A stretch of DNA of 32,000 nt from Moraxella nasicaprae (lineage in GTDB: Bacteria; Pseudomonadota; Gammaproteobacteria; Pseudomonadales; Moraxellaceae): the NCBI RefSeq assembly GCF_025643275.1, contig NZ_CP089977.1, positions 1,110,001-1,142,000 of the forward strand, given 5' to 3'. Shown piece by piece: positions 17,842 to 31,472 of this stretch. A model generated the notes under the pieces. The model did not search any database and was not told where the DNA came from. It worked only from the letters and a program-made list of their open reading frames with translations. Numbering within the stretch: the first letter of the stretch is position 1; every line of letters begins with the position of its first letter. The position numbers were made by a program, and so were the translations under genes.

Positions 17842-17872
17842 AATAAAAAACCGTGCTAGGGGTGGCACGGTT
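17842..17872 (-). terminator. Intrinsic terminator after the NrtD-like ATPase gene
   Basis: The stem is AACCGTGC (17849-17856) and GCACGGTT (17865-17872) with an 8-nt loop. The minus strand then reads TTTTTTATT. It begins 16 nt after the stop codon. Confidence 0.7.
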
Positions 17873-17887
17873 TGGCTTGGATAAAGA

Positions 17888-18736
17888 TTAGAGTAAATCC
17901 CAGTTATCACGAGCAGGATAGACCACTTTGGGTGTGGTAGGTCTGTCATCTTCTGCTTGTAGTTTTTTACTGCGATGCACCAAAAAGTCCAGCAAATGAT
18001 TGCGAATGCGATAATAATCTTGGCTGTGGTGCAGCTCTTCTCGGCTTCTGGGGTGTTCGATGGTGTTCACCACGATTTCAGCCAGCACCGCTCTTGGACC
18101 ATTGCTCATCAAAAAAATACGGTCAGCCAGCAAAATGGCTTCATCAATGTCGTGGGTAATCATAAAGACGGTTTGTTGGGTTTTTTCGACGATATTGACC
18201 AGCTCATCTTGAATGATGCCACGAGTCAATGCGTCCAATGCCCCAAACGGCTCGTCCATCAGCAGCATCTTAGGTTCGGTGGCAAAAGCACGAGCGATAC
18301 CAACACGCTGTTTCATGCCGCCAGAAAGCTGTGAAGGCATCTTGTCCATCGCAGATTCTAGTCCGACCAAAGACAGATAATGGCGGATTTTTTCGTTTTT
18401 TTCTGCTGTGGGCAATTTGCCAAATCTGGCATCGATGGCAAAGCCAATATTGTCTTTGACCGACAGCCAAGGCAGTAGGGCGTGACTTTGAAATACCACA
18501 CCTCTATCAAGACTGGGACCTGTGATGGGTGTATTGTCCATCAACATTTGTCCTTGTGTGGGTGTGTCAAGTCCTGCCAGACAGTTTAAGATGGTCGATT
18601 TGCCACAGCCAGAATGACCGATGAGGCAAATAAATTCGTTCTTTTTGATGTCAAAATTGATGTTTTCAAAAACATTTTGACCGCCATGTTGAAAACTTTT
18701 GGCAAGATTTTGTACGCTAATTAGAGTTTCTGTCAT
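17888..18736 (-). CDS. ABC transporter ATP-binding protein, NitT/TauT family (NrtD/CmpD-like)
   Basis: The Walker A is GHSGCGKST, the signature is LSGGMKQRVGIARA, and the Walker B is LLMDEPFGALD. Confidence 0.85.
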   Translation of the reverse strand: MTETLISVQNLAKSFQHGGQNVFENINFDIKKNEFICLIGHSGCGKSTILNCLAGLDTPTQGQMLMDNTPITGPSLDRGVVFQSHALLPWLSVKDNIGFAIDARFGKLPTAEKNEKIRHYLSLVGLESAMDKMPSQLSGGMKQRVGIARAFATEPKMLLMDEPFGALDALTRGIIQDELVNIVEKTQQTVFMITHDIDEAILLADRIFLMSNGPRAVLAEIVVNTIEHPRSREELHHSQDYYRIRNHLLDFLVHRSKKLQAEDDRPTTPKVVYPARDNWDLL

Positions 18737-18745
18737 CGTGTATTC

Positions 18746-19630
18746 TCATTCAGTATAGCTGACTTTCTTTTGTAATTTGGCAAAAATTAAGTCCAAAATC
18801 ATGCCAACCACGCCAATCATCAGTACGGCAAAAATCACATTGCCCAAAGATAGATTATTCCATTGATTCCACACAAAATAGCCAATACCTGTACCGCCAA
18901 CAAGCATTTCAGCAGCCACAATCACCAGCCATGCAATGCCCATTGAGATACGCATGCCTGTAACGATGGTTGGTGCGGCGGCTGGCAGGACGATTTTGGT
19001 GGCTTTGGTCAGAGGTGGTACTTCTAGTGTTTTGGCGACATTGAGCCATTCACGGCGAACCGAAGATACGCCAAATGCTGTGTTGGTCAGCATGGGCCAA
19101 ATCGAGCAAATAAAAATCACAAAGACCGCTGATAGGTTGGCATCTTTGATGGTGTACAACGCAATCGGCATCCACGCAAGTGGCGAGATGGGTTTGAGTA
19201 GTTGTACAAACGGAGAAATGGCTTTATTGGCAATCGGCGATATACCTAATAAGTAACCTAAGGGAATGGCAACCAGCATCGCCAATAAAAAGCCCGCCAA
19301 CACTCGACTGATGGAATAGGCAAGCTGAATGCCGATGCCCTTATCATTGAGTCCTTTGTCATAAAATGGATCGGATAGATGGGCAAAGCTGGTTTTGGCA
19401 AAACTCAGCGGACTTGGAAAGTCGCTTTCTTGGCTGCTTAAAATCGCCCCAGCAGGCGTACCTTCGGGGATATTGCCCATCAGCACTTCGTATTCTAAGG
19501 CAATGGCATCGGTTGGTGCAGTGATTTTGGTTGGTTGTGTTGCCATGTGCCAGACGCCAATCACGCCAACGACAATCAATAGACTTAGCAGGTAAGCCTT
19601 CATTTGTCCAGAAAGTTTGTTCATCATCAT
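18746..19630 (-). CDS. ABC transporter permease, NitT/TauT family (NrtB-like)
   Basis: It is a multi-span hydrophobic protein of 294 aa with the binding-protein-dependent transport fold. It sits between the binding-protein and ATPase genes with 3-nt and 9-nt gaps. Confidence 0.8.
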   Translation of the reverse strand: MMMNKLSGQMKAYLLSLLIVVGVIGVWHMATQPTKITAPTDAIALEYEVLMGNIPEGTPAGAILSSQESDFPSPLSFAKTSFAHLSDPFYDKGLNDKGIGIQLAYSISRVLAGFLLAMLVAIPLGYLLGISPIANKAISPFVQLLKPISPLAWMPIALYTIKDANLSAVFVIFICSIWPMLTNTAFGVSSVRREWLNVAKTLEVPPLTKATKIVLPAAAPTIVTGMRISMGIAWLVIVAAEMLVGGTGIGYFVWNQWNNLSLGNVIFAVLMIGVVGMILDLIFAKLQKKVSYTE

Positions 19631-19633
19631 CTC

Positions 19634-21001
19634 TTAGCGTTTGATTTTAAAGCTGTTTAGGTAGTCGTCAGGGCGACTGGGGTCAAATCGCTTACCCATC
19701 ACGGTGATGGATTTTTCGTTGGCAAAAGTATAGCCCATATTCGCCATTTGTTTTTTGGCATCGGTAAGCATGAATACTTGATTGGCAAGCGTTTGATAAT
19801 TCACATTGCCTTTGAGGTAGCCCCAGCGTTTCATTTGAGTCATCATCCAAATCGCCAAAGAATGCCACGGCATCGCATCAAAACCTGTACGGTCTGGCAC
19901 ATCTTGTACCTTACCAATGCCATCAGCAAATCTACCCGTCAGACTTTGGCGAATCACCAGTTCTGGCTGGTTTAGGTAGTTGGCAGGTGATAGAATCTTT
20001 GAAAACTGTTTTTTCATTTCAGGATTATTTGCCATCACATTGGCTTTGAGAATGGCACGATACATTGCCAAAAAGCTGTTCGGATTTTGGCGAATAAACG
20101 CAGCAGAAGTCCCAAATGAACAACAAGGGTGTCCATTCCAGATGTCACGACTTAGTGTGTGAATGTAGCCTGCTTTATCCCAAACGGCTCGTTGATTGAA
20201 TGGTTCAGGGCCAAAAAATCCATCAATATTGCCTGCTCGTAAGTTGGCAATCATGTCAGGCGGCGTGGTTAGGCGAAGTTTGACATCTTTATCAGGGTCA
20301 AGTCCATGCTCTGCCAAAAAATAACGCAACAAATAGTTGTGCATCGAATGCTCAAAGGGAATGGCAAAAGTCATGCCACGCCAGTTGGCAGGGTTGCGAT
20401 TGTCTTTGTGTTTTAATGCCATCACCAATGCTTGTCCGTTGATGTTTTGGATACAGGCAACTTGGGTATCTTGTTTGGCAGAACCTAGACCCAAAGTCAT
20501 CGCCAAAGGCATGGGTGCCAAAAAGTGCGATGCGTCCAGTTGGCGACTCATCACTTGGTCTCTGACCAATGCCCAGCCTGCTCGCTTGACCAATTTGGCA
20601 TTGATGCCTTGTTCGGCATAGTAGCCCAGTGGGTCTGCCATGATGAGTGGGGTGGAGCAGATGATGGGAATAAAACCAATGGTTAAGTCTTTTTTCTCAG
20701 GGGCAAGTTTGTCCATCGCTGCCGCTTCTTGTAGCAAGCCAAGCGGTAAGATACTCCCAATCGCTGCCATGGCAGTGCTTTTGCCAACGCTTGCCAAAAA
20801 AGCTCTTCGAGTTGGCTCGTGTGGAAATAATGCCTTGATGGCGGCAGCTTCGACAAAATCGGTCGAGGCTTGCTCGATTTGGCTGGCATCGCCAAAGCGT
20901 GTGTCTGGTGTTGCCATATCGCAAGCCTGTTGGCTATGATGGCGACCACAGCGACAGCCTAAACTGCTGTCTGTATCAAAGGGGCGAAAAATGTTAGTCA
21001 T
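19634..21001 (-). CDS. periplasmic substrate-binding protein, NrtA/CmpA-like, with a Tat-type motif after a long N-terminal extension
   Basis: Its 455 aa size and pattern fit NrtA/CmpA-type binding proteins. PTRRAFLAS matches the twin-arginine consensus but sits about 63 residues from Met1. The N-terminal region carries C16, C18, H21-H22 and C27. An alternative start is M29 (20917). Confidence 0.7.
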   Translation of the reverse strand: MTNIFRPFDTDSSLGCRCGRHHSQQACDMATPDTRFGDASQIEQASTDFVEAAAIKALFPHEPTRRAFLASVGKSTAMAAIGSILPLGLLQEAAAMDKLAPEKKDLTIGFIPIICSTPLIMADPLGYYAEQGINAKLVKRAGWALVRDQVMSRQLDASHFLAPMPLAMTLGLGSAKQDTQVACIQNINGQALVMALKHKDNRNPANWRGMTFAIPFEHSMHNYLLRYFLAEHGLDPDKDVKLRLTTPPDMIANLRAGNIDGFFGPEPFNQRAVWDKAGYIHTLSRDIWNGHPCCSFGTSAAFIRQNPNSFLAMYRAILKANVMANNPEMKKQFSKILSPANYLNQPELVIRQSLTGRFADGIGKVQDVPDRTGFDAMPWHSLAIWMMTQMKRWGYLKGNVNYQTLANQVFMLTDAKKQMANMGYTFANEKSITVMGKRFDPSRPDDYLNSFKIKR

Positions 21002-21039
21002 ATCAATTTCTTATCAAAAATCAGGGTGAATCTATCCTA

Positions 21040-21093
21040 AAAAATCCAAAAAAGCCAATCTGCAACGAACTTGGTGCGTCATACAGATTGGCT
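21040..21093 (-). terminator. Intrinsic terminator between the reductase gene and the ABC operon
   Basis: The perfect 10-bp stem is AGCCAATCTG (21053-21062) and CAGATTGGCT (21084-21093) with a 21-nt loop. The minus strand then reads TTTTTGGATTTTTT. Confidence 0.6.
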
Positions 21094-21154
21094 GGCAAGG
21101 TCATCGCTCAGATGTGGACTGATGAAGTCGAATCACGATGTATTGCTGGCAATA

Positions 21155-22507
21155 TTAACCGATGGGTTTTTTGAGCAGGGCTTTGGCAAGCAACTGCCCA
21201 TCTTGATGTAATTCTAGCGACAGCTCATGCTCTGTTTGTGTGATGATTTGCCAGTCGCCATCAGCAGTTGGATACCCATTAGCAGTCACCGAAATGGATT
21301 TGTTTTTTAGGCGAATCATCGGTGGTTTATGCTCATAATTGCCCACGCCTTGCAAAATATGGTTGGCGATGGCAGTTGCTTGCGGACGATGAGGGGCAAC
21401 ATAACGACATGGCATGCCATCAATGCTGATACAGTCGCCTAAGGCATAGATGTGCGGCACATTGGTTTGTAGGGTGGTGGTATCAACCTTGATGCCTGTG
21501 CGTTTATCAAAATCTAGTCCTGCACGAACAGGCAATCTGTCATCGACCATCAGTCCTGTGCTGACCACAATCTCATCAAATTGATGTTGAGTGGTTTGGT
21601 TGCTGGTGCAATCAAGCAGTTCAAGCACATAGCCAGCATCATTTTTTTGGACACTTTGCACCATGCTTTGCCCCAAAAATACGACACCCAAGCCAGTAAT
21701 AGCATCAAGAATTTGCTCAGTGGCAATTTTGGGCAATAGGGCATTTAGCGGTCTTGGGTGAACATCGATGAGACTGACCTGATGTCCTGCCATCGTCAAA
21801 TCTTCGGCAAGCTCTGTACCAATCATGCCAGCACCAATGATGGCAATGTGTTTTTTGTTGCCAGACAGCCGAGCTTGCAAGCCAGCAAATTTATCCAAAT
21901 GATTGACATGCCAAGCCATGCTTGGGTCAATGGTTGGTGGATAGGCGGGTTTTGCACCGATTGCCAGCACCAAATCATCATAAGCAATGTTGCCCAAGGT
22001 GGTGTGCAGTCGTTTGGCATCGGTGTCGATGTTGGTGACAAAAGTATTGGCAAGCAAGCGTACATTGGCGGTGATGGCAGCTTCTGCTCCACGACTACGC
22101 ACCAAATCGCTTGGCGTTTTGTGCTGACTGATGGCAACAGACAGCATGGGTTTGTGATAGCGGTCAGCATCATCAGCACTGATGAGTGTGACGGGAATGT
22201 CTTTATCCACAGCACGAATGGCATCAACCATCGCCCAGCCAGCCAGACCTGCACCAACGATGACTACACCAGCTTGCTGACTGTCAAACTCAACAATCGC
22301 TACCGTCTCATCATCGGTCTGCTCATAAGGTTCAAAGTCGGTTTTTCTGACACCGCATAGTGGGCATTGCCAGTCATCTGGAATGTCCTCAAAGCGAGTG
22401 CCAGCAGGCAAACCGCCATCAACATCGCCCAACTCTTCATCATAAATAAAGCCACAAGCAATGCAGATGAACTTTCGCCATGCACCACGACCATCGGTTG
22501 GCATCAT
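21155..22507 (-). CDS. rubredoxin domain fused to an FAD-dependent NAD(P)H reductase (NorW/RubB-like)
   Basis: The N-terminal rubredoxin has two CxxCG knuckles: [10 protein letters not shown] and WQCPLCG. These are followed by FAD-binding [11 protein letters not shown], the segment [11 protein letters not shown], and NAD-binding [12 protein letters not shown]. Confidence 0.8.
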
Positions 22508-22530
22508 TTTGTCTTATCCTTTAAAAAATC

Positions 22531-23637
22531 TTAAATAACTTTTGGTTCGCTCATCAGTTGATGCGACAAATAGCGTAGATGTTTAATCGCTGGGGTAACA
22601 ATGGCGACAAATTGAGCTTCCCTGAGGCGACGCTGTGGGGCTGATGTCATCAGATAGCCTTTGGCACCTTGATGTAGCATGGCTGCTTGGGTCGCTTGCA
22701 GGCACAGCATTGCTCCTTGGGCACGAGCATCTAGCACATCAAGAAAGAAGTCCTTGTGCGTCTCAAAAGGTGTTTTGGCAAGTGTTAAGGTGGTCTTGAC
22801 CAGCTTGTCCAGTTCGTGTTGCAGTGTGCCTGCTTGGTCTTCTAGGTAGGCATTGCTGACCGCTACGCCTTGCTTGATGTCGTCAATCGCCCCTGCGATG
22901 ATGCCTGCACCGATGCCAAGCTGCATCAAGACGAATGCACCACGAATTTTTTTGATGAATGCTTGGCAAGGATTGGCGATGATGTCCTGTTCACGCACAG
23001 GATAGTTGTTCAATTCAATTCGCCAAGTGCTAGAACCCTCCATGCCTGCAAAGGTTGGGCAGGCGTGTAGTTGCCAAGCACCTTGTCTTTCGTCATCAAA
23101 TTGCAACAAGAAAAACACCTGCTCGCCTGTTTCTTCGATGAGTGCCACCGCACCGCAGTATTGATGTGGGGCAATGTGGCTAATCCAAGGCAAAGTGCCT
23201 GACACCACATAGCCATTGCCATCTTTTTTTGCTTTTAAAATCATCGTTTCGATGTTTGCCCAAGTTTTCATTGGGTTGGATAAGGCCGTGCCGCCAAAGC
23301 TGTCTGCCCATTGGTGCTTACTTAGAAATTTATCTTTTAGGTATTCGTTGTCTGATTGGTCAATGTACAATCCGCACACTTGATGACACCAAGACAAAAA
23401 GCCAGTCGTGCCACAGACCTCGGCGATTTTGGCGGTGGATAAAATCGCTGTTCCAAAATCGCCCCCGTTGGCATTTAGATGTGCCGAAAAAGCCCCAGCC
23501 TTACCCAAGGCTGACATTTCTGCCAATGGGTAGTAGCCCCTATCAATTTCCAATACTTTTGGAGCAAGGTGGGTTTTGGCAAGCGTGGCAACATTGTCTA
23601 GTAATTGATTGGTATCTTGAAAGTTGATGTTCATCAT
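22531..23637 (-). CDS. acyl-CoA dehydrogenase-fold flavoprotein of unknown function
   Basis: At 368 aa it has the three-part ACAD-like layout. A central LPWISH segment occupies the place of the KxWITN motif. The C-terminal segment REAQFVAIVTPAIKHL sits where MCAD-type enzymes have RDA-x5-YEGT. The family call is by eye only. Confidence 0.6.
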   Translation of the reverse strand: MMNINFQDTNQLLDNVATLAKTHLAPKVLEIDRGYYPLAEMSALGKAGAFSAHLNANGGDFGTAILSTAKIAEVCGTTGFLSWCHQVCGLYIDQSDNEYLKDKFLSKHQWADSFGGTALSNPMKTWANIETMILKAKKDGNGYVVSGTLPWISHIAPHQYCGAVALIEETGEQVFFLLQFDDERQGAWQLHACPTFAGMEGSSTWRIELNNYPVREQDIIANPCQAFIKKIRGAFVLMQLGIGAGIIAGAIDDIKQGVAVSNAYLEDQAGTLQHELDKLVKTTLTLAKTPFETHKDFFLDVLDARAQGAMLCLQATQAAMLHQGAKGYLMTSAPQRRLREAQFVAIVTPAIKHLRYLSHQLMSEPKVI

Positions 23638-23812
23638 AATTTAACGATTATTAAGCAAAAATTTCGAAGTATTATAGAAAAAAATCATATGAATAGATAA
23701 GTTATTTTGGCATATTTTTAGTTCATTTTAGAATAAGAAATGACCAGCATGGCAAAAACCAAGCATCATTTGCCAAAATTTAGGTCAAATCTGCACAATT
23801 GTCGGTGGTTTG

Positions 23813-25489: not shown

Positions 25490-26200
25490 TTAGGCAGTTG
25501 TGGGTGGAACATAGCGTTTGTGCTTATTGATATAGCGTTCAAATTGGCGAAAGCCAAATAAGAATATCCAACTAATCAATAGATAAATGATACCAGCAGC
25601 AAAGTAGATTTCTAAGGTCAAATAAGTCACCGAAATGATGTTTTTGGCTTGGTGGGTCAGTTCAACCAAAGTGATGGTTGATGCCAACGCACTGCCTTTG
25701 AGCATAAAAATCACTTCGTTACTGTACGCAGGAATCATGATACCAAAAGCACGAGGTAGGGTAATACGACGCATTTTTTGGAATGCTGACATACCGATGG
25801 CATCAGCCGCTTCCAATTCGCCTTTTGGCACAGCCTGAATTGCACCACGCACAATCTCAGCGATGTAGGCACTGGTGTTGAGTGTAAAGGCGATGATGGC
25901 ACACCAATAGGCTTGGCTTAATACGGGCTGCCATAGCCAAGATTCTTGTACACTTTTGAATTGACCTAAGCCTGCATAAATCAAAAAAATCTGTACCAGT
26001 AGTGGCGTGCCACGAAAAAAATAGATGTAGGCGGCTGGGAAAATTCGCACCCATGCCACAGATGACAATCGCCATAAGCCAAGCAAAACGCCAAACACCA
26101 AGCCCAACGCACATGACAATACAACCAGCTCGATGGTGGTGACGGACGCTTTTAATAGTGCTGGAAAATGTTCAATAATTGCTTGCCAGTTCCAGTTCAT
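25490..26200 (-). CDS. polar amino acid ABC transporter permease (HisM/ArtM-like)
   Basis: It is a multi-span protein of 236 aa with the His/Glu/Gln/Arg-type permease pattern. Its ATG overlaps the upstream stop codon (ATGA at 26197-26200). Confidence 0.85.
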   Translation of the reverse strand: MNWNWQAIIEHFPALLKASVTTIELVVLSCALGLVFGVLLGLWRLSSVAWVRIFPAAYIYFFRGTPLLVQIFLIYAGLGQFKSVQESWLWQPVLSQAYWCAIIAFTLNTSAYIAEIVRGAIQAVPKGELEAADAIGMSAFQKMRRITLPRAFGIMIPAYSNEVIFMLKGSALASTITLVELTHQAKNIISVTYLTLEIYFAAGIIYLLISWIFLFGFRQFERYINKHKRYVPPTTA

Positions 26201-26937
26201 GCTTGCCCCCTTGTGTTACGCAGTTTTTTGGCATAGCGAGCTGCTGGATTGGCAAGAATCTCAAAGCGATTCATGAACAGCATGATGACTGTGGTCAGTA
26301 GCAGATAGATGAACGCTGCCGCCAGATAAAAAGTGAATGGCTTTTGGGTGGATTGGGCGGCTCGCTGGGCATAGTACATCAAATCGTGCAAACCAACCAC
26401 CGAGATAAGAGCGGTATCTTTGAGCAGTACCAGCGTCAAGTTACCAAGACCTGGTAGGGCGACCATCCACATCTGTGGCAAAATGATACGAAAAAAAGTC
26501 TGAGCAGGACGCATACCGATGCTTTGAGCTGCTTCCCATTGACCTTTTGGAATGTCCTGAATCGCCATACGAAATACTTCGGTGGCATAAGCACCAAACA
26601 TCACAGATAAAGCCGTGACACCTGCCCAAAATGGACTGATGTCCACTCGTCCGTGATAGCCAAACAGTTTTAAGATGGCGAGCAAAATGATACTGCCACC
26701 AAAATAGATGAACAGCACCATGAGAAGTTCTGGAATCCCACGCACCACCGTGGTGTAGATGTTGGCAAGTTTTTCCAAAATCCAAATGCCAGATAGCTTA
26801 AATAACGCACCAATCAAGCCAAACAACAAGCCCAACACCAAGCTGGCAAATCCAAGCTTGATGGTGGTGATGGTGCCTTGCACAAGAATTGGGCCGTAGC
26901 CTTGCAAATCAAACACAATAATACCTTTAATGCCCAA
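26197..26937 (-). CDS. polar amino acid ABC transporter permease (HisQ/ArtQ-like)
   Basis: It is a multi-span protein that is translationally coupled to the downstream permease. The start is ambiguous between TTG 26937 and GTG 26916. Confidence 0.8.
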   Translation of the reverse strand: MGIKGIIVFDLQGYGPILVQGTITTIKLGFASLVLGLLFGLIGALFKLSGIWILEKLANIYTTVVRGIPELLMVLFIYFGGSIILLAILKLFGYHGRVDISPFWAGVTALSVMFGAYATEVFRMAIQDIPKGQWEAAQSIGMRPAQTFFRIILPQMWMVALPGLGNLTLVLLKDTALISVVGLHDLMYYAQRAAQSTQKPFTFYLAAAFIYLLLTTVIMLFMNRFEILANPAARYAKKLRNTRGQA

Positions 26938-27171
26938 TAATATGGTTGGTGTTGGCTAATCAAGATGCTACTTTGGCTGAGTTGATTAAACAATACCAAA
27001 TGATTTTGTTTATAATTATTAAAAAACTTTCTAAAACGGTCAATCTGCCAAGAAAACTTAGGACTATCTTAGACAGTTTGTTGTCAAAAATATACCGCCA
27101 GTGGACAACATAAAGCACATTGTAGCAAATCTTGCCACCAAAATAAAACTTTTTGATGGCAAGAGATGTGA

Positions 27172-27945
27172 TTATTGTGCATCTTTTGGTAGGGCTTCTT
27201 TGCCAAAATGTTTGATGACAATTTGTTCATAAGTGCCATCTGCTTTAATGGCAGCCAATGCTTCATCAAATTTGTGCAAAAGCTCGGTATTGCCCTTGTC
27301 CACAGCGACAGAGATTTTGTCATCAATGTCAATCTCATCGCCAACGACGGCAAAATCTTTGCCAATGTCGCTTTTTAGCCAGCTAAGAGCAGGTAATTTG
27401 TCAGAAATCATCGCATCAGCACGCCCATTACCAAGGTCAATGAATGCATTATCCAAAGTATCGTACAGTTGTGGTTTGCTGTTTGGATAGGTTTGGGTAA
27501 GCCATTGACTTGAAATGGTTGAGCGTTGGGCAGCGATTTTGGCAGATTCGATGTCTTTGATTGATTTTGGGTCAAATGACGCACCATTTTTCTTCAAAAA
27601 CACCAGCGAATTGACAAAATACGGCTGACTAAAATCCACTTGTTTGCTTCGTTCCTCGGTCACTGACATGGCTGAGACGATGGCATCAAATTTGCCTGTT
27701 TTTAGGGCAGGAATGATGCCGTCCCAGTCTTGTGCTGAGATTTCACAAGTGGTCTGCATTTTTTGGCACAAGGCATTGGCGATGTCGATGTCAAAACCAC
27801 CCAAACTGCCATCGGCATTGGTGTAGTTAAATGGTGCATAAGCTCCTTCGGTGGCGATACGCAAAGTTTGGGTTTGCTCGCCTTTGTCAGAGCCACAGCC
27901 CGCCAATGCAAGAGTGGCAATGATGCCAAACACCAATTTTTTCAT
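27172..27945 (-). CDS. polar/basic amino acid-binding lipoprotein, paralog 1 (type A)
   Basis: The lipobox is LAGC. The family 3 binding-protein core reads LRIATEGAYAPFNY ... GFDIDIANALC ... QDWDGIIPAL. It shares the segment ASFDPKSIKD with paralog 4. Confidence 0.85.
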   Translation of the reverse strand: MKKLVFGIIATLALAGCGSDKGEQTQTLRIATEGAYAPFNYTNADGSLGGFDIDIANALCQKMQTTCEISAQDWDGIIPALKTGKFDAIVSAMSVTEERSKQVDFSQPYFVNSLVFLKKNGASFDPKSIKDIESAKIAAQRSTISSQWLTQTYPNSKPQLYDTLDNAFIDLGNGRADAMISDKLPALSWLKSDIGKDFAVVGDEIDIDDKISVAVDKGNTELLHKFDEALAAIKADGTYEQIVIKHFGKEALPKDAQ

Positions 27946-27970
27946 TTATTTCACTCCTTGAAATGATGAT

Positions 27971-28762
27971 TTATTCAACCAAAGCAGGGTCAAAGTATTT
28001 GCCAGCGATTTCTTTGTATTTACCATTGGCTTTTAGGCTGGCAATGGCTGCGTTGAAGTTGTTGGCAAGTTCGGTGTCTGATTGACGCATGGCAATGGCA
28101 ACATTGTCATTGATGTCAATCGATTCGCCTTTAACCTCAAAGCCTTTGCCTTGTTCGGTGTTATTGAGCCAATCGGTTGCAGGGGCAATGTCAGACAGTA
28201 GATAATCAACACGACCCGCCGCCAAGTCTAGATAAGCATTGACCTGCTTGTCATAGATTTTGAGGTTGGCTTTTGGGTGGTTTTTTTCTAAGTATTGAGA
28301 CGATACGGTGGCTTGTTGAGCAGCAACATTTTTGCCATCAATATCGGCAATCGTGCCAGTATCGCCTTTTTTGCCAACCAAGACCAGCTTGTTGTTAAAA
28401 TACGGTTCGCTAAAATTTACAGTCTTGCGGCGTTCTTCGGTGGCAGACATACTGGCAAAAATGGCGTCATATTTATCTGCAATCAAACCAGGAATCAGTG
28501 AGTCCCAGTCGTAGGAAGTGATGGTGCATTCTGCTTTCATCTCTTCACACAGGGCGTGGATAAGGTCAATCTCAAAGCCCTGATGTTTGCCTTCTGCGTC
28601 CAAATAGCTAAAAGGCTTGTAGTTAGATTCAGTGGCGATGCGTAGCTGAACTTTACCACCATCGGTGGCTGGCTGGCTTTCTTGTGGCTTGTCGTTACCA
28701 CAAGCAACCAAAGTCAGGCTCAGTGTCGCTGCTGCTGTTCCTAGAACATACTTTTTCATCAT
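27971..28762 (-). CDS. polar/basic amino acid-binding lipoprotein, paralog 2 (type B)
   Basis: The lipobox is LVAC. I place the start at ATG 28762, with an AAAGGAGTG Shine-Dalgarno. It is roughly 60-70 percent identical by eye to paralog 3. Confidence 0.85.
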   Translation of the reverse strand: MMKKYVLGTAAATLSLTLVACGNDKPQESQPATDGGKVQLRIATESNYKPFSYLDAEGKHQGFEIDLIHALCEEMKAECTITSYDWDSLIPGLIADKYDAIFASMSATEERRKTVNFSEPYFNNKLVLVGKKGDTGTIADIDGKNVAAQQATVSSQYLEKNHPKANLKIYDKQVNAYLDLAAGRVDYLLSDIAPATDWLNNTEQGKGFEVKGESIDINDNVAIAMRQSDTELANNFNAAIASLKANGKYKEIAGKYFDPALVE

Positions 28763-28828
28763 AACACTCCTTTTTTGTGGTGAATTGGTACCGCTTAACT
28801 GTGTTTGGCAATCAATCGCCAAACTTTG

Positions 28829-28866
28829 GCTGATGTTTTGCTTGATGATTCAAACAAAACATCAGC
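28829..28866 (-). other. Perfect 12-bp intercistronic hairpin between binding-protein paralogs 3 and 2
   Basis: The hairpin is GCTGATGTTTTG (28829-28840), a 14-nt loop, then CAAAACATCAGC (28855-28866). It lies 12 nt after the paralog 3 stop codon and no U-tract follows it. Confidence 0.6.
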
Positions 28867-28877
28867 TGATACTGACA

Positions 28878-29648
28878 TTATTTGGTTGCACCAAAATATT
28901 TGTCAGAGATTTGTGCATATTTGCCATTGGCTTTTAGGCTGGCAAGTGCTGCATCAAATTGTGCCTTAAATGGACTGTCTTTGACAACGGCGATACCAAC
29001 TTTGTCGCCAATGTCAATCGGTTCGCCTTTAACCTCAAAATCCTTACCTTGCTCAGTGGTGAGCCAGTCAGAGATTGGCACGATGTCTGATAGCATAAAC
29101 TGGACACGACCAGCCGTCAAGTCTAAATATGCATTATCTTGCTTATCATAGACCTTGATGAGGGCTTTTGGGTGATTTTTTTGTAGATAATCTGCCGAGA
29201 CGGTCGCTTGTTGGGTGGCGACTGCCTTGCCATCAATGTCAGCGATGGTTGAAGTATCGCCTTTTTTGCCAACCAAGACCAGCGTGTTGTCAAAATAAGG
29301 TTCGCTAAAATCCACCACTTTTAGGCGTTCTTCGGTGATGGACATGCCTGCCATCACGGCATCAAATTTATCAGCATTAAGACCTGGAATCAGACCGTCC
29401 CAATCTTGGCTGGAAATTTCGCATTTGGTTTTCATTTCTTCGCACAAGGCATTGGCAAGGTCAATCTCAAACCCCGCCAAATTACCTTGATTATCCAGAT
29501 AGCTAAATGGCTTAAAACTAGATTCGGTGGCAATACGCACTACTTTTTCTTCTGTGTTGGCGGTAGTATTTTCGGTTTTATCGTTGCCACAGGCGGTTAG
29601 GGCGGTGATTGCTAGCACGGTGCTGGCGATTTTTAGGATTTTTGTCAT
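28878..29648 (-). CDS. polar/basic amino acid-binding lipoprotein, paralog 3 (type B)
   Basis: The lipobox is LTAC. I place the start at ATG 29648. It shares GKKGDT-TIADIDGK and many other segments with paralog 2. Confidence 0.85.
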   Translation of the reverse strand: MTKILKIASTVLAITALTACGNDKTENTTANTEEKVVRIATESSFKPFSYLDNQGNLAGFEIDLANALCEEMKTKCEISSQDWDGLIPGLNADKFDAVMAGMSITEERLKVVDFSEPYFDNTLVLVGKKGDTSTIADIDGKAVATQQATVSADYLQKNHPKALIKVYDKQDNAYLDLTAGRVQFMLSDIVPISDWLTTEQGKDFEVKGEPIDIGDKVGIAVVKDSPFKAQFDAALASLKANGKYAQISDKYFGATK

Positions 29649-29662
29649 TGTGATTCTCAATA

Positions 29663-30442
29663 TTAGTTACCAAAATGGAGTTTTTCTAGTTCTGCCAGTT
29701 TGCCGCTTTCTTTGACTTTTGCCAAAGCAGCGTCAATGTCAGCTTTTAGGGTATCGCCCTTGCGAACCGCAATGCCTAGATGGTCGTTGTTGTCAATCTC
29801 TTCGCCAACCAAGCCAAAACCTTGATTGTCTGCTTGTTTTAGCCAGTCGCTGGCGGAAACTTTTTCTGCCATCACAGCTTGGTTACGACCTGCTTTTAGG
29901 TCAAGATAGGCATTGGTATAGGTGTCATACAGCTTGACGGTATTGCCATCTTTGCCATCGTATTTTTCGCTGATGTAGGCAGCACCTGTGGTGGCTCTTT
30001 GACTGCCTAGGACAAGATTTTTGATGTTATTTGGGTCAAAGCTACCATCATTTTTGGCAAGCCAAACGATGGTGTTTGAAAAATAAGGTTCGCTAAAATC
30101 AACCTGAGCTTGGCGTTCTTTGGTGATGGACATACCAGCGATGATGGCGTCATAGTGATTGGCAAGCAGGCTTGGAATCAGACCGTCCCAATCTTGGGCT
30201 TTAATCTCGCATTCGGCATTCATTTCAGCACATACTGCTTGAATGACATCAACATCAAAACCGACAATTTTGCCATCTGGTGTGGTGTTGTTGAACGGAG
30301 GGTAGGCAGCTTCGGTGGCGATGGTCAGTTTGCGTTTTTCAGCAGTTGGCTGGGCATCTGCTTGCTCGGCTGACTTGTCTTGACCGCAGCCAACTAAGAC
30401 AGTACCACAAAGTACAGCAAGAGCGGTTAGGCGTTTTAGCAT
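29663..30442 (-). CDS. polar/basic amino acid-binding lipoprotein, paralog 4 (type A)
   Basis: The lipobox is LVGC. The core reads LTIATEAAYPPFNN ... GFDVDVIQAVC ... QDWDGLIPSL. It shares GSFDPNNIKN with paralog 1. Confidence 0.85.
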   Translation of the reverse strand: MLKRLTALAVLCGTVLVGCGQDKSAEQADAQPTAEKRKLTIATEAAYPPFNNTTPDGKIVGFDVDVIQAVCAEMNAECEIKAQDWDGLIPSLLANHYDAIIAGMSITKERQAQVDFSEPYFSNTIVWLAKNDGSFDPNNIKNLVLGSQRATTGAAYISEKYDGKDGNTVKLYDTYTNAYLDLKAGRNQAVMAEKVSASDWLKQADNQGFGLVGEEIDNNDHLGIAVRKGDTLKADIDAALAKVKESGKLAELEKLHFGN

Positions 30443-30526
30443 GATAAATCCTTAAAAAGTACAAATGAAAAAATCAACAATATTTAAGTCAAATATATTT
30501 TGGTAATCAAATCACACGGCACAAAA

Positions 30527-31309
30527 TCATTGGTGAGAGGCCATAAATTCACGCACACGGGGCGATTTTGGGTTGTCAAACACTTCGCTTGGCGTGCCAA
30601 TTTCTTCGATGCGACCTTGATGTAAAAAGACCACCTTGCTTGATACCTCACGAGCAAAACGCATCTCGTGGGTCACAATCAGCATCGTACGACCTTCTGC
30701 GGCTAATTCTCGCATCACCGCCAGCACTTCATTGACCAGCTCGGGGTCAAGAGCGGAGGTTGGTTCGTCAAATAGTAAGACTTGTGGACGCATGGCAAGT
30801 GAACGAGCGATGGCAACACGCTGTCTTTGACCGCCTGATAGATTGTCAGGGTAGGCGTCTTTTTTATCCAATAGACCCACTTTGGTCAATAGTCTTTCAG
30901 CGTCTTTAATCGCCTCTTCTTTGGATAAGCCTAAGACTTGCGTTGGTCCTTCGATGATGTTTTGCAAAATGGTCTTATGTGGCCATAGATTAAAACTTTG
31001 GAACACAAAGCCGATTTTGGAACGCAATTTTTCAAGCTGGCGTTTATCGGCGGCAATCAACTCGTCTTTTTTGGCTTTTAGTTTCAGCTCTTCTTGACCG
31101 ATAAAAATTTTGCCAGAGCTTGGGTTTTCAAGCAGGTTAATGCAGCGTAGCAGGGTTGATTTACCCGAACCTGATGAACCAAGAATGCTGATGACATCGC
31201 CATCGTGTGCGGTTAAAGACACGCCTTTTAAGACTTCCAGCGAGCCGTAATTTTTGTGAATGTCCTGCAAGTCTAATGCAATCGGTCTTGAATCTGAAAT
31301 GTCAGTCAT
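30527..31309 (-). CDS. polar amino acid ABC transporter ATP-binding protein (ArtP/HisP-like)
   Basis: The Walker A is GSSGSGKST, the signature is [14 protein letters not shown], and the Walker B is [12 protein letters not shown] place the start at ATG 31309 rather than the track start 31342. Confidence 0.9.
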
Positions 31310-31472
31310 GGCTATCCTAATGTTGAAGTCGTCAAATATCAATCAATGCACCATCAATATATCGCATCAATTTTTTGGGTGCATCATCGCATTCTATATT
31401 TTTACCCAAAACATCAATAAAGGCAAATATTTTTCATCACTTTTTGTGATTTTATCAGCTTTTCTTGGATTT

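Follow-up and report, generated by a model that had tools for sequence, protein, structure and literature searches.

Heterotrophs that use thiocyanate (SCN-) as a nitrogen source are known, and the only enzymes for its breakdown that two reviews describe are thiocyanate dehydrogenase (TcDH) and SCN- hydrolase, both from sulfur oxidizers (PMC5328954, PMC5778177). Described gene clusters that resemble the locus considered here include the cynFABDS system of Pseudomonas pseudoalcaligenes CECT5344, which has an NrtABD-type ATP-binding cassette (ABC) importer (PMC6627978), nrtABCD of Moraxella catarrhalis, and the meningococcal nafA (NMB0995)-NMB0994-rubredoxin cluster, in which NafA is known as an anti-aggregation factor and vaccine antigen without an enzymatic role (PMC3128610, PMC3553081). 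The locus is a five-gene operon in a 32,000-nucleotide stretch of Moraxella nasicaprae DNA (contig NZ_CP089977.1, positions 1,110,001 to 1,142,000; the window hereafter), which is part of a complete 2.1-Mb genome. The operon combines an acyl-CoA dehydrogenase (ACAD)-fold flavoprotein, a rubredoxin-reductase fusion and an importer. We lean, by a small measure, toward regarding it as a sulfur-starvation operon that imports thiocyanate from host secretions and oxidatively splits its C-S bond to recover sulfur. We infer thiocyanate as the substrate, and the C-S chemistry, from gene content, co-conservation, residue losses, promoter motifs and absences.

The operon shares its NrtABD-type importer with cynFABDS, and its copies in environmental Proteobacteria additionally share the cyanase and the sigma-54 Fis-type activator of that system; however, cynFABDS contains no ACAD, reductase, OsmC or sulfur genes, whereas cyanase, activator and sigma-54 are all lacking from the Moraxella operon. 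The importer is very probably orthologous to that encoded by nrtABCD of M. catarrhalis, a species that also carries the ACAD-fold gene (PMC4938438, PMC3699543). In the accessible text of these two reports, nitrate is only a putative ligand and SCN- does not figure; the nrt knockouts attain full growth whether the medium is rich or defined (PMC4938438), which is what one would expect had they other sulfur to draw on.

Gene layout and protein residues

Five intact, co-directional open reading frames (ORFs) on the minus strand span positions 17888-23637, with hslO divergent and glmS downstream on the same strand. These ORF calls confirm the arrangement between hslO and glmS given in an earlier sequence-only reading of the window, and profile and structure searches agree with the domain identities it assigned to all five genes:

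22531-23637, minus strand: ACAD-fold flavoprotein of 368 aa, PF02771 (Acyl-CoA_dh_N)
21155-22507, minus strand: rubredoxin-NAD(P)H:rubredoxin reductase fusion, PF00301 and PF07992 (Pyr_redox_2), with two CxxCG knuckles
19634-21001, minus strand: NrtA/CmpA/CynA-family binding protein (NMT1_2), with an HPCC pocket motif, a CxCG leader and a twin-arginine motif
18746-19630, minus strand: NtrB-type ABC permease (NtrB 207.7 bits, just under the cut-off of 209)
17888-18736, minus strand: NtrD-type ABC ATPase (NtrCD match)

From the ACAD gene to the ATPase gene, the intergenic gaps measure 23, 153, 3 and 9 nt, and the GC content and third-position GC of all five genes are typical for the genome. Recent horizontal acquisition of the module is not indicated, given this ordinary composition and the grouping of the Moraxella ACADs in one clade (quick tree, long branch).

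The ACAD-fold protein belongs to a family with 3782 matches and at least 600 loci in species genomes, which is present in 18 of 400 Pseudomonadota genomes. A structure search with the model of a 51% identical homologue (pLDDT 88) returned the ACAD fold, as the sequence-only reading had it, with 4kto matched at Z 39.3 and a root mean square deviation of 2.5 over 350 residues; identity to solved ACADs is 21% at most, so that there is no close solved relative. The residues depart from the fold's usual chemistry. The Y-E-G-T loop of ACADs aligns with V-T-P-A, which is fixed across 41 homologues, and the helix-G catalytic position of the isovaleryl type (IVD-type) holds an invariant Phe by manual alignment; the catalytic Glu of ACADs is thus found at neither the medium-chain (MCAD)-type nor the IVD-type site. 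The R-x-Q-F-G motif for the FAD pyrophosphate is absent, the aligned family segment being LGHVNQ, a change likewise fixed in the 41 homologues, and the FAD-ADP contacts are lost. The N-terminal flavin motifs GGTALSNP and GTLPWISH are retained, and Cys75, Cys161, Cys193, His108, His322 and His353 are invariant in the family. In DszC/SfnB/C2-type monooxygenases, a His in an H-D-P loop stabilizes the C4a-hydroperoxyflavin, and nitroalkane oxidase has a catalytic Asp at the ACAD Glu position. Here the first site reads V-T-P and the second is Thr (13% identity to 3mkh), and the earlier suggestion of a DszC/SfnB-type oxygenase or nitroalkane oxidase accordingly loses its footing. With none of the three catalytic residues in place, the protein is, as judged from its sequence, a member of a distinct ACAD-fold subfamily without a characterized member, and we propose it as the putative thiocyanate-splitting subunit. 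The reductase fusion, whose best PDB match is the rubredoxin reductase 2v3a, is proposed from its domains as the electron donor.

The binding protein reads HPCC where nitrate-binding NrtA (2g29) reads HPEK and CmpA (2i48) reads HPEE; hence neither the anion-binding Lys of NrtA/NasF nor the bicarbonate Glu of CmpA is found in it. Every operon-associated binding protein carries H[PA]CC, across two distant clades (50-82% versus about 26% identity), whereas paralogous binding proteins from the same genomes read HPEK. The replacement of the binding-site Lys/Glu by Cys argues against a nitrate or bicarbonate importer. Identity to the binding proteins of divergent activator-ABD-cynS clusters is 50-53%, and SsuA/TauA-type profiles score weakly against the importer (39.7 and 20 bits). 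At the N-terminus (window 20900-20960, minus strand), a CxCG/His leader stands ahead of a deeply placed twin-arginine motif; among same-clade binding proteins, CxCG is seen in 57/60 and RRxF[LIM] in 53/60, and some gene callers begin the protein at its second Met, thereby losing the CxCG leader.

Distribution of the module and its partner genes

Neighborhoods were tallied with hidden Markov models in 72 loci from outside Moraxella, each flanked by 8 kb or more on either side, a sample that leans to the best-scoring homologues. An OsmC or CMD gene stands beside the ACAD gene in 71 of them (one-Cys OsmC-like in 67, CMD/AhpD in 4), the reductase fusion is present in 59 and the complete importer in 51. 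A sigma-54 GAF activator gene accompanies 55 loci and cyanase 43; 39 have a sulfur gene, namely those for persulfide-dioxygenase-like proteins (23), rhodanese (17) or TauE (13), and in 28 loci cyanase and a sulfur gene occur together. Of 93 environmental operons, 59 have an upstream sigma-54 site, where about 0.8 would be expected. The environmental operon is therefore widespread across Proteobacteria with its genes co-conserved, and the five-gene co-occurrence on which the sequence-only reading depended holds both in Moraxella and beyond it. Its observation that the usual nitrogen partners of NrtABD are missing stands for the window and, as regards cyanase and (by a motif scan) nitrate reductase, for the genome, but not for the environmental copies, many of which have cyanase or sulfur genes. 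The literature on the gene families, or on SCN- with these genera, yielded nothing on the operon (subscription papers being mostly uncovered) and no characterized role for the module, in keeping with the earlier statement that no established pathway has this composition.

The conjunction of cyanase with sulfane-sulfur disposal in one operon points to a substrate that yields both cyanate and sulfur, of which thiocyanate would be the simplest. From formation energies, plain hydrolysis of SCN- comes to about +19 kJ/mol, which makes an oxidative split the more plausible chemistry. A protein named Methylorubrum thiocyanatum in nr sits in a full operon, and growth of that species on SCN- as a nitrogen source is on record in a work cited by a review (PMC5328954, ref. 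B79).

Two variants of the environmental layout may be mentioned. One alphaproteobacterial clade (L106-L112) has the order TetR-OsmC-ACAD-rhodanese, often beside a cynF-cynABDS-like unit. In Alcaligenaceae-type loci (L036, L040, L046, L048, L052, L053, L058, L059), only OsmC, ACAD, reductase and a small cupin are present; the importer and cyanase are not nearby, yet most of these loci have a sigma-54 site.

Probable sulfur control in Moraxella and Neisseria

Among 42 Moraxella genomes, the ACAD gene is found in 32, the importer in 18 (all 18 with the ACAD) and the CMD gene in 36. Cyanase occurs in none of the 42; in the M. nasicaprae genome there is likewise no cyanase anywhere, no sigma-54, and no cluster-type OsmC, activator or dioxygenase, its two OsmC genes having been rejected as the cluster type, and a motif scan found no nitrate-reductase motif. 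Neither nitrogen recovery nor nitrate uptake would thus be evidently useful here. The CMD gene directly precedes the ACAD gene in 6 of 20 Moraxella loci and lies in trans in M. nasicaprae (G000:1545566-1546111). In a quick tree with a long stem, the Moraxella ACADs group together as a single clade that is nested, tentatively, within the environmental OsmC-ACAD-reductase group. The layout varies within the genus: a cystine-type ABC importer stands between the ACAD and reductase genes of one Moraxella, and two genomes carry the importer separately from the ACAD. A six-gene form (CMD, ACAD, reductase and importer) on the Moraxella osloensis plasmid pNP7-5 (L167:7166-14206) is flanked by an integrase-domain gene on one side and an IS1 transposase on the other, which indicates that the module can be mobile. 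In one further Moraxella, an island resembling a type I restriction-modification system, as judged from N-terminal sequences only, parts the reductase from the importer (L172:5417-16592).

De novo motif discovery on 14 ACAD promoters, all from Moraxella other than M. nasicaprae, gave a palindromic motif for which the present genome is out of sample. The motif marks two sites here:

23718-23736, no strand: 19-bp palindromic LysR-type (T-N11-A) box, 99 nt upstream of the ACAD start
23780-23798, no strand: second, weaker match to the LysR-type box (10.3 bits)

The first site ranks 5 of 971 M. nasicaprae promoters. The promoters of cysP (52), cysK (74) and a cysI-like gene (78) fall within the top 8%, and metQ is among the top ten sites; cysM and the CMD gene show no such signal. 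In the genus as a whole, 21 of 28 cysK promoters score above the 95th background percentile compared with 2 of 141 control genes, one of the two being an nrtA of this operon; cysP promoters, too, have raised scores. The genome has a CysB-like gene (282 bits, below the cut-off of 436), and the box common to the operon and the cys genes is what membership in a CysB regulon predicts; CysB is probably the protein that binds it. Identical 19-mers at G000:581388 and G000:585365 (L176), the top motif matches, each lie 99 nt upstream, one of an LLM-class oxidoreductase gene and the other of a quinone oxidoreductase gene, and may belong to the same regulon or represent a duplicated promoter.

In M. nasicaprae, cysK, cysM and a gene of the sulfite-reductase family are kept without any gene of the PAPS-reductase family, so the organism would need sulfur sources besides sulfate; in the genus, the sulfite-reductase gene occurs in 36 of 42 genomes and a strong cysD/cysH pair in only 9. 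As thiosulfate uptake is present, the missing sulfate activation is not counted as specific evidence.

The Neisseria cluster is like the Moraxella operon in its CMD, ACAD-family and rubredoxin genes (PMC3128610, PMC3553081), the products being 58%, 40% and 64% identical to the M. nasicaprae proteins, and differs in having no fused reductase or importer nearby. NMB0995 and NMB0994 are probably the meningococcal counterparts of the CMD and ACAD genes. When meningococcus is depleted of cysteine, NMB0995 rises 7.2-fold and NMB0994 3.5-fold (PMC3553081 supplement), along with cysK (5.5), cysI (6.1), cysA (4.9) and also cysJ (PMC3553081). The Moraxella variant, then, probably serves sulfur rather than nitrogen, given the lack of cyanase and sigma-54, the box common with cys genes and the meningococcal response.

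Two further elements bear on how the operon is transcribed:

21040-21093, minus strand: internal hairpin with U-tract, between the reductase and binding-protein genes
17848-17873, minus strand: intrinsic terminator closing the operon before glmS (z = -4.3)

The latter is the true end of the operon. The internal hairpin (arms 21053-21062 and 21084-21093, 10 bp, a 21-nt loop, U-tract after) does exist as the sequence-only reading described it, but "strong" overstated it: its z is -2.2, 5 of 200 shuffles are as good, and the terminator scan did not call it. Most of the Moraxella compared have some hairpin at this spacer, with unrelated sequences, and Rfam has no family that matches; pseudomonad copies have a hairpin-free spacer of about 40 nt, and the hairpin is missing from several environmental operons. 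Attenuation at a conserved hairpin, or a riboswitch or attenuator with a conserved leader, therefore finds no support. The hairpin arm was also rejected as a repeat family. We read the hairpin as a partial terminator or stabilizer that lowers importer expression, not as a riboswitch.

Beyond hslO, window positions 25490-31342 hold an amino-acid-type ABC cluster (two permeases, several binding-protein-sized ORFs and an ATPase), and the same arrangement flanks the operon at L120-L122. Outside the window, G000:211075-214896 is a 1273-aa ORF with a putatively Cas12a-like N-terminus.

Proposed route, alternatives and known systems

In the route proposed for thiocyanate, the HPCC-type ABC importer would take in SCN-, and electrons would pass from NAD(P)H through FAD and rubredoxin to the ACAD-fold protein, as the domains suggest. 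The reduced flavoprotein would then activate O2 and oxygenate the sulfur, an oxidative desulfuration that may be written SCN- + O2 + NADH + H+ -> OCN- + [S] + H2O + NAD+. The sulfur would pass to a thiol carrier, putatively the one-Cys OsmC-like protein in environmental operons and the NafA-like AhpD/CMD protein in Moraxella and Neisseria, and could reach cysteine by way of a sulfite-reductase-like protein and CysK/CysM, the genes for which are observed. Cyanate would be discarded in Moraxella because there is no cyanase. The environmental copies would do the reverse, keeping nitrogen (cyanase, sigma-54 control) and disposing of sulfur (persulfide dioxygenase, rhodanese, TauE). The broader notion in the sequence-only reading, of uptake and redox processing of a small N- or S-containing anion, gains support from co-conservation, and no characterized role was found that would displace it.

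Several observations weigh against thiocyanate and sulfur supply. About 40% of the environmental loci are without cyanase and about 46% without a sulfur gene within the span examined; cyanase also adjoins carbonyl sulfide-pathway hydrolases (PMC5328954), so that adjacency is no proof of a cyanate product. M. thiocyanatum is a weak control because much of its genus carries the ACAD gene, and the rhodanese-bearing alphaproteobacterial clade is mostly without rubredoxin within 9 kb. In Moraxella, 14 of the 32 ACAD-positive genomes have no importer, no box precedes the CMD gene that lies in trans, and the missing sulfate pathway could be explained by uptake of thiosulfate (CysP, CysM). None of the top three motif matches in M. 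nasicaprae belongs to a known sulfur gene, extended -10-like sites are picked out by the matrix as well, and the related genomes are not independent, which inflates the p-values for the box. Identity to the Neisseria ACAD is only 40%, and that protein falls in a separate clade; NMB0994 was assigned to the family from synteny, annotation and the size of NafA, 182 aa (PMC3128610), and cysteine depletion in meningococcus also induced oxidative-stress genes (PMC3553081).

Of the alternatives, the one that survives best, though we think it unlikely, retains the sulfur-starvation operon and replaces the substrate with some other small N/S compound, such as a thiocarbamate, a thiourea-type compound, an isothiocyanate derivative or a cyanide-cysteine adduct. 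The context and promoter evidence fits any source of cyanate plus sulfur, ACAD folds usually take larger organic ligands, and the cystine-type importer inside one Moraxella operon hints at an amino-acid-like substrate. Thiocyanate is preferred in that the importer usually present is a member of the small-anion NrtA/CmpA/CynA family and that SCN-, which is abundant on mucosae and in soils and leaves, matches the habitats of both forms of the operon.

An improbable alternative is defense against hypothiocyanite (HOSCN) or another oxidant, which the reductase chain would reduce through the flavoprotein and the AhpD/OsmC thiol protein. It draws on the origin of both interchangeable partners (OsmC, AhpD) in peroxidase-related families, the presence of the CMD gene in Moraxella genomes without the ACAD, the increase of NMB0995 in blood (PMC3382141) and the divergent promoter common with hslO, a redox chaperone gene. 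Yet hslO is adjacent only in part of the genus, the Moraxella promoter box is common to cysteine-supply genes, and the ATP-driven importer, cyanase, persulfide dioxygenase and sigma-54 control of the free-living relatives indicate catabolism.

Still less probable are two independent units, with an importer of nitrate, nitrite or cyanate that merely follows a redox gene pair. The hairpin between the units, the 14 Moraxella with the enzyme pair and no importer, the two genomes in which the importer lies apart, one of them with a separate box before nrtA, and the occurrence of same-clade importers in divergent activator-ABD-cynS layouts like cynFABDS would all suit such an arrangement. However, the Moraxella importer always occurs with the ACAD (18/18), and the two are adjacent phylum-wide with both binding-protein clades; moreover, the nitrate Lys is absent, and the genome is without cyanase or a detectable nitrate reductase. 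That the flavoprotein is an ordinary ACAD of fatty-acid or amino-acid catabolism, as annotated and as its fold and best structural matches would have it, is hardly tenable in view of the lost Glu and FAD-ADP contacts, the Phe at the isovaleryl-type site, the identity of no more than 21% to solved ACADs and the lack of electron transfer flavoprotein or beta-oxidation neighbors in conserved clusters.

Returning to thiocyanate, a wider proposal may be offered tentatively, as a possibility somewhat short of our reading of the operon itself: the rubredoxin-fed ACAD-fold enzyme could supply the step still missing for heterotrophs, the cleavage of thiocyanate, and the Moraxella and Neisseria of mucosae (including M. 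catarrhalis, meningococci and gonococci) could have rewired its nitrogen control to the cysteine regulon for sulfur from host thiocyanate. Thiocyanate is the substrate of the lactoperoxidase defense system; if the proposal is true, colonizers of the airway and eye use a nutrient route that consumes an innate-defense precursor, and the vaccine antigen NafA gains a biochemical role. It also supplies named candidate genes for the gap in heterotrophic SCN- use, which bears on the treatment of mine and coke wastewater and on nitrogen cycling in leaves and soils. The findings suggest that "nitrate ABC transporter" and "acyl-CoA dehydrogenase" are misannotations in these genomes.

Among known systems, the TcDH cyanate pathway of Thioalkalivibrio has the same net products as those proposed here, cyanate and zero-valent sulfur (PMC5328954, PMC5778177). 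TcDH, however, is a copper enzyme of autotrophs that passes electrons to cytochrome c, whereas the ACAD-fold protein is an unrelated flavoprotein fold and apparently fed by NAD(P)H. The likeness extends further to the group D flavin monooxygenase systems for organosulfur compounds (DszC/TdsC, SfnB and the ssu/tau type), which likewise combine an ACAD fold without the dehydrogenase base, a Pro in the C-terminal loop, a partner reductase, an importer and CysB-type control; 5xb8 was among the structure matches found here. DszC and SfnB differ in the His of H-D-P (V-T-P here) and in a free-flavin reductase (a rubredoxin reductase here), and the ssu/tau importer is of the SsuA/TauA type, the Moraxella importer of the NrtA type. 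The module falls outside those enzyme families by the tests of membership in them, yet it would work like an ssu/dsz-type scavenging system.

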